Shown here: positions 9,118 through 63,664 of the stretch, one piece after another
Layout of the letters: every line of letters starts with the position of its first letter
Numbering within the stretch: the first letter of the stretch is position 1
NCBI GenBank assembly: GCA_000146045.2
Contig: BK006949.2
Coordinates: 448,001 to 512,000, forward strand
Source of the DNA: TPA_inf: Saccharomyces
Lineage: Eukaryota
DNA length: 64,000 nucleotides
Direction of reading: 5' to 3'
Program-made: the position numbers and the translations under genes
The notes under the pieces: generated by a model
What the model was told of the DNA's origin: nothing
The model's input: the letters and a program-made list of their open reading frames with translations, nothing else
Databases searched by the model: none

Positions 9118-10458
9118 TTATGGTAACCTATCCCAACCTTCTGGCTTATCTTTCTTCATAATGTCGAAGTAATGTCCGCCACATGAACCACTTCTAAACG
9201 TGAAATCGTTACCCTGGTCACAGTTACAATTATATTGGTTCCATATATCATCGTTTAGGGGACAGTTATTGTACTTGTCATAATGGAATCCTATATTTTC
9301 GAAAAAATGTATTTTATCCTTTGGCAACAGCATCGATAACCCAATTGTGTGGATGATGGAATCAGACCATTTCCAGTAGAAAATACCGCCCTCTTCGTCG
9401 ATGTAATTAAAAAATTTCCTGTAAGCTGGCGATCTATAAAAGTTCAAATTACCAATTTCAAAATTTGATGTGAATTCACAGTTGTTAAAATCTTCAGAGT
9501 CCTTTTTTGTAATAAATGACTTGAAATTATTCTCGGAAATAAACTTTGGAAAATCCTTTGCAAATTTTTTCGTAACATCCCAAATCTTCTCATTGGCTTC
9601 CTTAGCTTCACTCATACTCAATGTGAAACCAAACACTTTGCCTTCATCTTGCATCCACCTAAAAAGGTCATGATCAATATCACAGTACAATTTAATACCA
9701 GGGTCTACTCTCCAGTACCAATCAAACTCATCCAGAACTGGATGCCTCCAAAAAAACCCTGCAAAATATCTAGCTTGATATCTTACAGCTCTAGAATCAC
9801 CATCCGGTACATTTGCTAATGAAATTAGCGATTCTGCTGCTTTATTTTCATCAATCCATTCAGGGTATACCCATTCGTCTGCAGGAATTTCAGCAAATTT
9901 AATATTAATTAACTCAGGATCACCATTCATAGAATCAGTTATGGCTTGACGAATCATTTCTTGCTTCATTCCGTCAAGCTCCCCCTGACTAATAAAAACC
10001 CAAGGATAAGCAAAATTTTTGTTAAACTTCACCTGCACTTCATCAATAGATTGTAAGATTTGGGTCATGGAATCCCTTTCAGTAATTAGTGAGACAAAGC
10101 ACGCCTTTGGTGGTGATCCTCTATGATTGATATACGATGGCACCATGAACCCTAGCGTCGTTTCATTACCACCATAAGATTTGATCTTTTCCTTAATGGC
10201 ATTCACGGTGGCATTTCTAATGGCCTCTCCCTCTAAAGATTGCTTCAATTCGGCTTCTTCCTGTTCACTTTGTATACGCCTTTGTTCCTCTGCACTAATT
10301 TTTGCAATAGGTTGCAAAGATTTCGGAAGGTATGGTGTAACATACTGTTCAGACATCTGCTTTGTTTTTGGATGATTTATTGTCACCATTAGCGCAAGCA
10401 CGAAAACAAACGAAATCAACAGAAAGCGTGCTATTTTTTTGCTCAGCAGTACGTGCAT
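9118..10458 (-). CDS. KTR6: Golgi mannosylphosphate transferase of the Kre2/Mnt1 family, a type II membrane protein
   Basis: The 446-aa ORF has an N-terminal signal-anchor and KTR-family glycosyltransferase motifs (YQARYFAGFFWRHP). The length matches KTR6/MNN6 (YPL053C). Confidence 0.85.
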   Translation of the reverse strand: MHVLLSKKIARFLLISFVFVLALMVTINHPKTKQMSEQYVTPYLPKSLQPIAKISAEEQRRIQSEQEEAELKQSLEGEAIRNATVNAIKEKIKSYGGNETTLGFMVPSYINHRGSPPKACFVSLITERDSMTQILQSIDEVQVKFNKNFAYPWVFISQGELDGMKQEMIRQAITDSMNGDPELINIKFAEIPADEWVYPEWIDENKAAESLISLANVPDGDSRAVRYQARYFAGFFWRHPVLDEFDWYWRVDPGIKLYCDIDHDLFRWMQDEGKVFGFTLSMSEAKEANEKIWDVTKKFAKDFPKFISENNFKSFITKKDSEDFNNCEFTSNFEIGNLNFYRSPAYRKFFNYIDEEGGIFYWKWSDSIIHTIGLSMLLPKDKIHFFENIGFHYDKYNNCPLNDDIWNQYNCNCDQGNDFTFRSGSCGGHYFDIMKKDKPEGWDRLP

Positions 10459-10798
10459 CTTACCTTATCTTATCTTCACTAAAGGGCACAAAAGGTTGGG
10501 TGAACGCTTAGTATCCCTCTAGTCTTGTATACTCGTACACATTATAAGTACATTTAACAAATCTCATCCACATTTCTCGAATAAATATCACATGTAACTT
10601 GAAGGTTATTTTTATATTTTTTTTTCCTGTGAAGGAACAACTCGTGTCTCACGAGAGCGCCACTTAAAAAACGAAAAGATAATCGGCGATGACTATATAT
10701 GTATGTGATTGAGAATAAAAATATGGAAAGATAAAAGACCTAGTAACGTTGTATTTCAATAGTGAGGATAACATAAAGAAGTAAAAAGATCTTTGAAA

Positions 10799-11678
10799 AT
10801 GTATGAAGTAATACAGAAAAGGAAAACAAAAATAATAAACGTTTTACAGAGTCCTGAACTCATGAGGCTCATAGAGGACCCATCAAATCTGGGTATTTCT
10901 TTACATTTTCCAGTAAGTTCACTGCTAAAAAGTAATAAGTGCACACCAATGCCTAAACTTTCTACGTATAGTTTGGCTAGTGGGGGATTTAAGGATTGGT
11001 GCGCGTGACATCCCTCTAGACGTTCCACCAGAGATTGATATCATCGATTTTTACTGGGATGTTATTTTATGCATGGAATCTCAATTCATATTAGATTACA
11101 ATGTTCCGTCAAAAAATAAGGGGAACAATCAGAAGTCTGTTGCTAAGCTGTTGAAAAATAAGCTTGTAAACGATATGAAAACTACGTTAAAAAGACTAAT
11201 TTATAATGAAAATACCAAGCAATATAAAAATAATAATAGCCACGATGGTTACAATTGGAGAAAACTAGGCTCGCAGTATTTCATACTGTATCTTCCCCTA
11301 TTTACGCAGGAACTGATTTGGTGTAAACTTAATGAAAACTATTTCCATGTTGTATTACCATCTTTACTGAATAGTAGGAACGTTCATGATAACCACAGTA
11401 CCTATATAAATAAAGATTGGTTACTTGCCCTTTTAGAGCTAACTTCCAACCTGAACCAAAACTTCAAATTCGAATACATGAAATTGAGATTGTATATTTT
11501 AAGAGATGATTTAATTAATAATGGTTTGGATCTTTTGAAAAATCTTAACTGGGTCGGTGGGAAACTGATTAAAAATGAAGATAGAGAAGTCTTGTTGAAC
11601 TCGACCGATTTAGCTACGGATTCTATTTCTCATTTATTAGGTGATGAAAACTTTGTTATTTTAGAGTTTGAATGCTAA
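10799..11678 (+). CDS. OAZ1: Ornithine decarboxylase antizyme. The CDS needs a programmed +1 ribosomal frameshift: ORF1 is 10799..11005 and ORF2 is 11007..11678, skipping U at 11006.
   Basis: Two overlapping ORFs (10793..11008 in frame 2 and 10980..11678 in frame 0) join at gcg-tga-c. The fused product, ...GGFKDWCA/DIPLDVPPEIDIIDFYW..., is 292 aa when it starts at MYEVIQ. That equals the known Oaz1 length. Confidence 0.9.
11003..11009 (+). other. OAZ1: Programmed +1 frameshift site GCG-UGA-C, the polyamine-sensing recoding site of antizyme
   Basis: The ORF1 stop codon UGA lies at 11006..11008. ORF2 continues as GAC AUC CCU from 11007. Confidence 0.85.
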
Positions 11679-11962
11679 GCAGTTATATTCAGTTAGAAGC
11701 ATATATCCCACCATTAAATAAGTTAACATACTACTGCATTTTTATTTTATGTTTAAGAGCAGATACGTCAATGTAGCTTGCATATGTACGTATCCTCCCC
11801 CACCTCCTATTTTCTACTTTGAACTTTATGGGAGTGTTAGTATAAGAAATATGTTTACACCTTTTTCAGACAAATGTAAACGGAAAATTAAAAAACGAAT
11901 TCAGATCGATGTGTTAATCAAGTAGATGAAGGAGAATAAAGCATATAAAGCGCACCGCACAC

Positions 11963-12559
11963 ATGTTTCATTTAGTCAAGGGACTTTACAATAATTGGAA
12001 TAAAAAGGAACAATATTCAATTCTAATATTAGGTCTAGACAATGCAGGCAAAACGACGTTCTTGGAGACATTGAAAAAGGAATACTCTCTGGCGTTCAAA
12101 GCCTTGGAAAAGATACAGCCTACGGTAGGACAAAATGTGGCGACAATACCCGTTGACAGTAAACAGATCTTGAAGTTTTGGGATGTAGGTGGTCAAGAAT
12201 CACTGAGATCAATGTGGTCCGAATACTATTCCCTATGTCATGGTATAATTTTCATTGTGGATAGTTCAGATAGAGAACGATTAGACGAATGTTCCACGAC
12301 CCTACAGTCAGTTGTAATGGATGAAGAAATTGAAGGTGTACCCATCTTGATGCTGGCCAATAAACAAGATAGACAAGATAGAATGGAAGTACAAGATATA
12401 AAAGAAGTATTTAATAAGATTGCGGAACATATAAGCGCTAGAGATAGTAGGGTTTTACCAATAAGCGCATTGACTGGAGAAGGTGTTAAAGACGCTATAG
12501 AATGGATGATTGTTAGACTAGAAAGGAATAAAAAGTCAAGACCACCGATTTATAAATGA
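11963..12559 (+). CDS. ARL3: ARF-like small GTPase
   Basis: The 198-aa ORF carries the G1 motif GLDNAGKTT, the G3 motif WDVGGQ and the G4 motif NKQD. Its position fits YPL051W. Confidence 0.9.
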   Translation: MFHLVKGLYNNWNKKEQYSILILGLDNAGKTTFLETLKKEYSLAFKALEKIQPTVGQNVATIPVDSKQILKFWDVGGQESLRSMWSEYYSLCHGIIFIVDSSDRERLDECSTTLQSVVMDEEIEGVPILMLANKQDRQDRMEVQDIKEVFNKIAEHISARDSRVLPISALTGEGVKDAIEWMIVRLERNKKSRPPIYK

Positions 12560-12778: not shown

Positions 12779-13972
<1,194 letters not shown>

Positions 13973-21896: not shown

Positions 21897-23996
<2,100 letters not shown>

Positions 23997-37950: not shown

Positions 37951-38711
37951 CAAACAAACATATCCACATATCAGAAGTAGGCCGATCTTTTGCTTGATTG
38001 GATGCAAATTCATATGGAAAATTTTTTTCATATTATTTCGTGTTCTTTTGACTATTTTCCTCTCCAAAAAGGAAGAATCATTCCAATAACAACACACGAA
38101 TTCCCATCCAACATGGTGAAATGACTAAATATTTTTTTTTTCGAAACATTAAATCAATCTAATTCTTAATTTTTAATAAACATATAATGCACACTTATTT
38201 ACATACAAGCACATTGCACGTATTATATCAGTTTCTTCTTTTATGTTGATATATTTTTCTAATAATGTTATTATCATGTAGTCGTGTATGTGCGCCTCTC
38301 CCGCGAGAAGTCCAACACCATAAGAAATCAAATGTCAAGAGAAATAAAGAATTGTTTCCCATCATAGATAAGACTATATCAGAAAAGTGCTCATCAAAGC
38401 TAAATCTATTATGAGATGTCTTAGGCATAACAAAAAAGGGAGAGCGGTGCAAGATAAACATACCGTCGGATAAAAAGTACTGTCATTATCATCAGTGGCA
38501 AGATGCAAGGTACACACGGGCACCAAGAGATAATGCGCAAAATAAACCGGGTTTTATTTACATCTATACATACAGTAACCTCTTTGAATCATACATATCT
38601 GAAAAGACGGTAGATTTAAAATGGCTATTTATTGATGAGTCAATAGTTCGGACTAATGGTAAAAAGAAGAGACAATGGGTAGACAGAGACTTTATTCTAT
38701 GTAAGATAGGA

Positions 38712-39209
38712 ATGACCACTCGAAAAACAGTAGATTCAAGACTTTTAGAATGGCAAACCACATGCAAGCATCCAGTGATAAACTTGACTCCAGAGAAAGT
38801 CGATAAATTATACCACTTGAAATTGAAAAGTGAAAGCAAAAATATCAGTTCAAACAGGCTATTGCCCATTTCATTATCAAGCTTACAAAAAAAAATGGAG
38901 AAACTTTTCATCAAAGATAAAAGTCACTCACACAAGCCTTCCCTTCCAGATCCTAAGGTGCCAACCCTACGCACTTATAAAGATGGTGGATTTTTCATTA
39001 GCGGAAAAGGTTCAATGAAACTACCAGATATCGAAAGCGCTATTCATAAATTTTTATGGAAGAAATACGGGAAAGGATTGGTTTACTGTTATGGGTGTGA
39101 TCCAACTGGAAAAAAGAGGCATACAGAGTGGTTCAATGTGCCTGTATTGGAGCTACCATCAGTACTAAGACTTATTGATTCTTATTGCCTTGGAGGAGAA
39201 TCTCGTTAG
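38712..39209 (+). CDS. Uncharacterised protein (YPL034W-like)
   Basis: A 165-aa ORF with no recognisable motif. Position fits YPL034W. Confidence 0.55.
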   Translation: MTTRKTVDSRLLEWQTTCKHPVINLTPEKVDKLYHLKLKSESKNISSNRLLPISLSSLQKKMEKLFIKDKSHSHKPSLPDPKVPTLRTYKDGGFFISGKGSMKLPDIESAIHKFLWKKYGKGLVYCYGCDPTGKKRHTEWFNVPVLELPSVLRLIDSYCLGGESR

Positions 39210-63100: not shown

Positions 63101-63664
63101 ATGTTATATAACAAAGAGCAGGGAACAAGCGGCGCTAGTAGCTCTGGTCGTAGAACGAAATTCCACTTCGATCGTTTTGTACAAATGGTTCTGTTCATTG
63201 CCGCTAATCCCAATTATTGCTGTTCAGTAGCCAGTATCCCGAAATCTGGTGTCACGCCAGATTTAAAAAGAGCAGATATTCTTGAACAGAAGATCAAAAG
63301 CTTAAATAGTGCGCTGAGTCCAAAATTGAAGGAAGAAAGTCGTCTTGGTGGGCCTTTGCATAACCCCTCTATTCTACCAGCCCCATCTTTTTCATCACTA
63401 CCAATATCATCCAATGGAAAGAAATCTTTAGCAGGATATAGACCTAAAAGTAGGAAGAAACAAACTATACTCCCCAACGGTCAACCAAAAGAGTGCGCCA
63501 CTTGTGGTGACACCTGGACTTCTCAGTGGAGAAGTGGACCTAATGGAAATGTTGAGCTATGTAGTCGATGTGGCATAGCATATAGGAAAAAAATGGAGAA
63601 AAAAATACGATCGCAACAATCCTCCGATGATGGTACTAAAAATTTTATATTTAAAAATAAATAG
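63101..63664 (+). CDS. ECM23: GATA-type zinc-finger protein
   Basis: The ORF is 187 aa from MLYNKEQ. It has a C-x2-C-x17-C-x2-C GATA finger (CATCGDTWTSQWRSGPNGNVELCSRCG). Confidence 0.8.
   Translation: MLYNKEQGTSGASSSGRRTKFHFDRFVQMVLFIAANPNYCCSVASIPKSGVTPDLKRADILEQKIKSLNSALSPKLKEESRLGGPLHNPSILPAPSFSSLPISSNGKKSLAGYRPKSRKKQTILPNGQPKECATCGDTWTSQWRSGPNGNVELCSRCGIAYRKKMEKKIRSQQSSDDGTKNFIFKNK

Follow-up and report, generated by a model that had tools for sequence, protein, structure and literature searches.

OAZ1 (YPL052W) of Saccharomyces cerevisiae, an ornithine decarboxylase antizyme gene decoded by programmed +1 frameshifting

Layout of the locus

The window, by which we mean the whole 64,000-nucleotide stretch of DNA that was analysed, carries on its plus strand the gene OAZ1, made up of two partly overlapping open reading frames (ORFs). 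ORF1 occupies 10799..11005 on the plus strand, in what we call frame 0, and runs from an ATG to a GCG through 69 sense codons; in an all-frame translation of 10500-12000 it reads MYEVIQKRK...GGFKDWCA followed by a stop. The stop codon of ORF1 is a UGA (11006..11008, plus strand) followed by a C, which is a weak termination context. ORF2 lies in the +1 frame of the same strand (11007..11678) and is made up of 223 codons and a TAA stop at 11676-11678. Its translation from 11007 begins DIPLDVPPEIDIIDFYWDV and continues through all 223 codons to the TAA. The two frames meet at the heptamer GCG-UGA-C (11003..11009, plus strand), in which the GCG at 11003-11005 encodes Ala69, the last residue of ORF1, and is the P-site codon when the shift occurs; the skipped base is T11006. 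The frame of ORF2 has been open since 10929, giving a zone at 10929..11008 of the plus strand in which both frames are open. ORF2 lacks its own start codon at the junction; the first ATG in its frame, at 11073, gives a product of 201 aa. Two partly overlapping ORFs, a first stop that begins with U, and a second ORF in the +1 frame together make up the architecture of an antizyme gene (PMC2375905 for the rule across the family). ORF2 encodes the antizyme domain, which according to published work binds ornithine decarboxylase (PMC9656687, PMC5349141).

Joining 10799-11005 to 11007-11675 with T11006 left out gives 69 + 223 codons, a protein of 292 aa. An earlier note on this DNA, made from the sequence alone, had described OAZ1 as read in two frames through a +1 shift, with DWCA running seamlessly into DIPLDV, and the +1 frame is indeed open from 11007 to the TAA. 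The length of 292 aa which it gave for the fusion holds when translation starts at the ATG at 10799; from the start that it named, 10793, the fusion would have 294 residues. Position 10793 begins a TTG that precedes the ATG by two codons, and ORF1 was counted as 71 aa because the start was taken there. Its ORF2 of 232 aa likewise has to be corrected, as that frame begins at a GTG at 10980, a start permitted only under a bacterial-code ORF rule. The G-rich context that the note saw around the UGA is real: 48% of the 23 bases preceding the UGA are G (the whole window is 39% G+C).

Upstream of OAZ1, on the minus strand, is a Glyco_transf_15 gene; downstream, on the plus strand, is an Arf-family GTPase gene. 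The chromosomal position of the locus can be fixed from a second +1 frameshift gene in the window, YFS1/YPL034W (38411-39209, plus strand), whose heptamer CTT-AGG-C lies at 38420-38426. The ATG at 38411 opens a 20-codon ORF1 (MRCL RHNKK...) that contains the heptamer; when A38423 is skipped, a 265-aa protein ending at 39209 results, and the annotated ORF of 165 aa starts at 38712. This layout agrees with the published one, in which the YFS1 start codon is placed at chrXVI 486,411-486,413 and the annotated YPL034W start at 486,712-486,714 (PMC12719033). These two start codons stand at 38411 and 38712 in the window, which therefore corresponds to chrXVI 448,001-512,000, and this puts OAZ1 at chrXVI 458,799-459,678. 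Two further plus-strand copies of CTTAGGC do not look like shift sites: the copy at 13935 is antisense to an ORF at 12779-13966, and the copy at 23732 falls within the ORF at 21939-23996 but not in its frame, its CTT starting at codon position 3.

Identity of the fused product

By exact-sequence look-up, the fused 292-aa protein is identical over all residues to NP_015273.2 and UniProt OAZ_YEAST, which carry the curated names 'Oaz1p [Saccharomyces cerevisiae S288C]' and 'Ornithine decarboxylase antizyme'. The longest of the 51 contigs from which this sequence has been recorded has 948,066 bases. Comparison with S. cerevisiae OAZ1/YPL052W revealed no difference, with agreement in protein, heptamer, neighbours, and chrXVI coordinates. 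We put the probability that the locus is this gene, the S. cerevisiae ornithine decarboxylase antizyme decoded by programmed +1 frameshifting, at about 97%. The claim of the earlier note that OAZ1 is read in two frames is thus borne out both by the layout and by the exact match of the fusion to the reference Oaz1p.

The direct sequence evidence that the product is an antizyme is thin. The earlier note had proposed comparing the fused protein with antizyme profiles; the match to Pfam PF02100 (ODC_AZ) falls below the curated cut-off of 24.2 bits, scoring 16.6 bits for the fusion and 17.4 bits for ORF2 alone. An exhaustive profile search recovered 22 relatives. ODC_AZ is matched in all six of the six close orthologs and in 19 of the 23 aligned sequences (best E value 2.2e-7), and it is the only Pfam family consistently matched by the relatives, such that the product of ORF2 is homologous to the antizyme C-terminal domain. 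The earlier note had staked its reading on some resemblance of the ORF1 or ORF2 product to antizymes, and an objection on that ground does not apply here. Taken together, the curated antizyme name and the consistent ODC_AZ matches of the relatives identify the protein as an antizyme despite the weakness of the direct match.

Searches of PDB sequences with the protein alone and with profiles of 6 and 23 sequences returned no antizyme, only chance-level matches to haemagglutinin. A first structure model, built with 6 sequences, had a pLDDT of 61.8 and was too weak to be relied on; its top Foldseek match was the AZ1 chain 5bwa_B, with an E value of 6e-3. The product shows the antizyme fold, which it shares with mammalian antizyme; the structural alignment of the two has 14% identity. 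Sequence similarity to animal antizymes is marginal, and membership of the family rests on transitive matches, fold, and published biochemistry.

Conservation of the site and of both frames

Orthologous loci in S. arboricola and other yeast assemblies were reached through truncated gene products in public databases, and they have the same Glyco_transf_15 and Arf-family neighbours. The exact heptamer GCG-UGA-C is present in L001-L009 and L012, ten loci that represent six distinct sequences, and two more distant budding-yeast loci, L010 and L011, have CCG-UGA-C (1521-1527 in each). The conserved core within the clade appears from these sequences to be NCG-UGA-C, because L010 and L011 carry CCG-TGA-C instead of GCG-TGA-C. 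In every ortholog examined, ORF1 ends at the heptamer and ORF2 is in the +1 frame, so that both the site and the two reading frames are conserved. ORF1 has 69 codons in five Saccharomyces sequences and 62-97 codons in the three more distant loci (L010, L011, and L012); it reaches 115 codons in a homolog that shares 45% identity with the present protein when fused. The fused ortholog proteins align end to end and are 45-87% identical to the protein described here.

The heptamer by itself is not beyond chance, as the window has two copies of GCGTGAC where shuffles predict 2.3; its placement at the very end of a conserved ORF1 with the +1 frame open, together with its conservation, is beyond chance. 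The second GCGTGAC, at 63251-63257 on the minus strand, was rejected as a chance match, since the relevant frames are open for only 12 codons ahead of it and 9 beyond it.

Substitutions were counted by codon position at the variable sites among the five Saccharomyces sequences. Upstream of the site, variable sites in frame 0 number 16, 11, and 49 at positions 1, 2, and 3, respectively (49/76 at the third). In the zone where both frames are open, the frame 0 counts are 8, 3, and 19, and downstream of the site, in the +1 frame, they are 20, 11, and 27. This codon-position pattern indicates that purifying selection on the protein switches frame at the heptamer. Within the overlap zone (10929..11008), it is frame 0 that is under selection.

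Two short stretches ahead of the site vary little even as nucleotides. The codons TTT AAG GAT TGG (FKDW, within 10983-11005 and the matching positions of L001-L009) are almost invariant in nucleotides, even in the homolog with 45% identity, and TAT AGT TTG (YSL) is invariant across the five Saccharomyces sequences. The near-invariance of these codons could reflect a 5' nucleotide element or a constraint on the nascent peptide. A separate observation concerns L012 (Eremothecium sinecaudum, CP014244.1, 1501-2290), whose deposited 262-aa product reads ...QEWLRDTSNE... at the junction. A clean +1 shift at the GCG-TGA-C of L012 predicts ...QEWLADTSNE..., and since the deposited WLRD differs from the predicted WLAD, the annotated join seems to have been placed one or two bases off.

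Frame 0 could also be brought into the ORF2 frame by splicing. Excision of a 40-nt GT...AG intron at 10932-10971 would restore the frame and yield a 279-aa protein, and it reproduces the 279-aa database entries (P0001 has the same length, with 5 strain differences), several of which are in the same 90% cluster as the 292-aa protein. We nevertheless regard splicing as highly improbable. The region has no TACTAAC-type branch point, the sole GTATGT lies ahead of the ATG, at 10701, and an intron of 40 nt would fall below the length of known yeast introns. Its removal would delete 13 codons that are conserved as frame 0 protein and would put part of the later ORF1 stretch, also conserved in frame 0, into the +1 frame. 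The affected stretch includes the YSL..GFKDW.A motif, which is retained even in the 45%-identity homolog, and third-position variation in frame 0 persists right up to the UGA. The curated reference protein, moreover, is the 292-aa frameshift product.

The two ORFs might instead be two genes, with ORF1 encoding a 69-aa peptide and ORF2 being translated independently from the ATG at 11073 to give 201 aa. Gene callers do yield ORF2-only products of 201, 228, and 231 aa, and every ribosome that fails to shift releases a 69-aa termination product (PMC9656687). Against this, the 22 ORF2 codons ahead of Met 11073 encode a conserved stretch of protein (DIPLD..IIDFYWDVILC) and contain no ATG, and the YWD.I motif in this stretch is retained across the whole family. 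The calls of 231 and 228 aa need start codons that are absent in other species, and the end of ORF1 and the start of ORF2 are tied to the same heptamer in every lineage. Separate translation of the two ORFs has, in our estimate, hardly any chance of being right, about as little as splicing.

Equally hard to credit is a different recoding event in the same gene, namely stop-codon readthrough or a -2 shift. A -2 shift leads into the same frame as a +1 shift, and DNA alone cannot tell them apart. However, its junction would contain one more residue, an Arg (...WCARD...), for a total of 293 aa; the curated protein has 292 aa and reads ...WCAD.... Readthrough in frame 0 stops after 9 codons and produces no antizyme domain, and at the OAZ1 stop it is nearly unaffected by polyamines (PMC3113565). 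Deletion of the T is the in-frame control used in experiments (PMC9656687), which also speaks against both events. The earlier note had named a full-length product made in frame as fatal to its reading; there is none, given the short readthrough extension and the lack of yeast intron signals. Least probable of all is that the frame break is a pseudogene lesion or a sequencing error and that no full-length protein is made: a single break in one sequence does resemble such damage, but the same break at the same heptamer recurs in at least eight independently assembled species or lineages whose proteins, at 45-87% identity to this one, are not copies of one contaminant, both ORFs are intact in each lineage with coding-type substitution patterns, the 292-aa sequence comes from 51 contigs, and the frameshift has been measured experimentally (PMC9656687, PMC12661321, PMC3113565).

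Decoding of OAZ1 and its place among frameshift genes

With programmed +1 frameshifting as the preferred reading, expression of OAZ1 would proceed as follows. Translation would start at the ATG at 10799, and after 69 codons the ribosome would reach the site, where its P site is occupied by GCG (Ala) and its A site by the weak stop UGA-C. The majority of ribosomes would terminate at the UGA and release the 69-aa product, while a minority would skip the U, decode GAC (Asp) in the +1 frame, and read on to complete the 223 further codons of the 292-aa antizyme. A rise in polyamine would increase the yield of the full-length protein, which would bind ornithine decarboxylase monomers and deliver them to the proteasome. 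The degradation of ornithine decarboxylase would then close a negative feedback loop on polyamine synthesis.

Frameshifting in yeast OAZ1 was reportedly first described by Palanimurugan et al. in 2004 and has been dissected since. In the present account, layout, identity, conservation, and fold come from the sequence, while efficiency, polyamine response, the parts played by the nascent peptide and hypusinated eIF5A, and tRNA mechanism are taken from the literature. The heptamer at 11003..11009 that the earlier note picked out as the shift site can be seen in the sequence and is named in papers, as GCG_U.GA_C, as the shift site of OAZ1/YPL052W (PMC12661321, PMC12719033, PMC9656687). The T is skipped and decoding resumes at GAC (PMC9656687). 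The bare heptamer supports about 3% frameshifting, and the native 200-nt context about 8% (PMC12661321). Ribosome profiling of OAZ1 is reported to be phased in frame 0 as far as chrXVI 459,005, where density falls, and in the +1 frame from there on (PMC12661321, Fig. 3). Spermidine and spermine raise it several-fold, to a maximum of 27.6%, and scarcely alter readthrough; UGA-C is a poor stop context in OAZ1 (PMC3113565). Binding of polyamines to the nascent Oaz1 chain relieves ribosome stalling, and the Oaz1 shift is promoted by hypusinated eIF5A (PMC9656687). Ornithine decarboxylase bound by antizyme is reported to be sent to ubiquitin-independent proteasomal degradation (PMC5349141, PMC9656687). 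Published work also reports translation across the ...DWCA|DIPLD... junction, loss of the full-length product when the +1 frame is closed, and an effect of oaz1 deletion on the stability of ornithine decarboxylase and on its response to polyamines.

Downstream of the site, a candidate RNA hairpin is predicted at 11019..11063 on the plus strand, starting 13 nt after the UGA. It is part of the predicted fold of the 100-nt segment that begins with the heptamer, which is more stable than that of shuffled sequence (z score -2.79). When the hairpin at 11019-11063 is imposed on six orthologs, 80% of cells pair and 2 pairs are changed on both sides, and the minimum-energy fold has 85.5% of cells paired with 4 pairs changed on both sides; both counts are confounded, since one of the six sequences itself supplied the structure and the stretch also codes for a conserved peptide. 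In the RNAalifold consensus of the orthologs, the heptamer pairs with bases lying 60 nt downstream, and no compensatory changes are present. That the predicted hairpin acts as an undescribed 3' stimulator is an unlikely proposition. If true, the hairpin would explain the roughly three-fold gain of the native 200-nt context over the bare heptamer. A permissive Rfam scan of 10400-12000 (E values up to 10) gave five chance-level matches to unrelated families and no antizyme element, which places yeast OAZ1 outside the vertebrate-type antizyme pseudoknot RNA family. This fits with the report that antizymes as a whole have no stimulator in common (PMC2375905).

Outside the yeasts, the gene can be compared with human OAZ1 (mammalian antizyme 1), which likewise has a short ORF1 ending in UGA and its main ORF in the +1 frame. 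In both, the shift responds to polyamines, and ornithine decarboxylase is bound by the product and directed to degradation. The human site differs, however, in being UCC_UGA_U and in having a conserved 3' pseudoknot (PMC9841425), in contrast to the GCG-UGA-C of yeast. The earlier note had called the motif conserved from yeast to mammals; this is true of the layout and of its logic, but not of the heptamer. The only feature universal across antizyme shift sites is the U of the stop codon (PMC2375905).

With respect to the site itself, OAZ1 resembles the retrotransposon-type signal of Ty3 (GCG-AGU-U), as GCG is the P-site codon in both. The GCG at 11003-11005 is followed by UGA-C, and the P-site position is taken by CCG in L010 and L011. 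OAZ1 has been placed in the Ty3-type mechanistic class, in which the shift at the GCG P-site codon is thought to take place without re-pairing of the tRNA (PMC12661321). The two differ in that the A-site codon of Ty3 is the slowly decoded sense codon AGU, whereas the shift in OAZ1 competes with termination at a stop, and in that OAZ1 has a regulatory role in the cell and is subject to metabolite feedback. [quoted passage not shown] Their reported efficiencies are much higher, and polyamine feedback has been described for antizyme only (PMC12661321, PMC12719033).

Both the gene and the way it is decoded were known before, and no new biology comes from the locus. What it does provide is a view of how such genes fare in annotation. 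Wrong OAZ1 models have been deposited (P0001, P0005, P0006, and P0038 are examples), including a 279-aa model with an invented 40-nt intron, an ORF2-only model of 201 aa, and one of 184 aa. The 279-aa intron model is common in annotations of population genomes, and the 90%-identity cluster of the correct 292-aa Oaz1p also contains models of 279 and 201 aa. The 'YPL052W' entry of S. arboricola is a 201-aa fragment, and the flag 'LOW QUALITY PROTEIN' is attached to RefSeq orthologs from Naumovozyma, Tetrapisispora, and Henningerozyma. The prediction of the earlier note that ORF-based pipelines would mis-call the gene is confirmed by the false-intron and truncated models in public databases. Pipelines that demand uninterrupted ORFs get OAZ1 wrong, and the gene is a documented example of systematic mis-annotation. 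The true recoding site can be recovered from raw sequence alone, and the locus can be used as a positive control.
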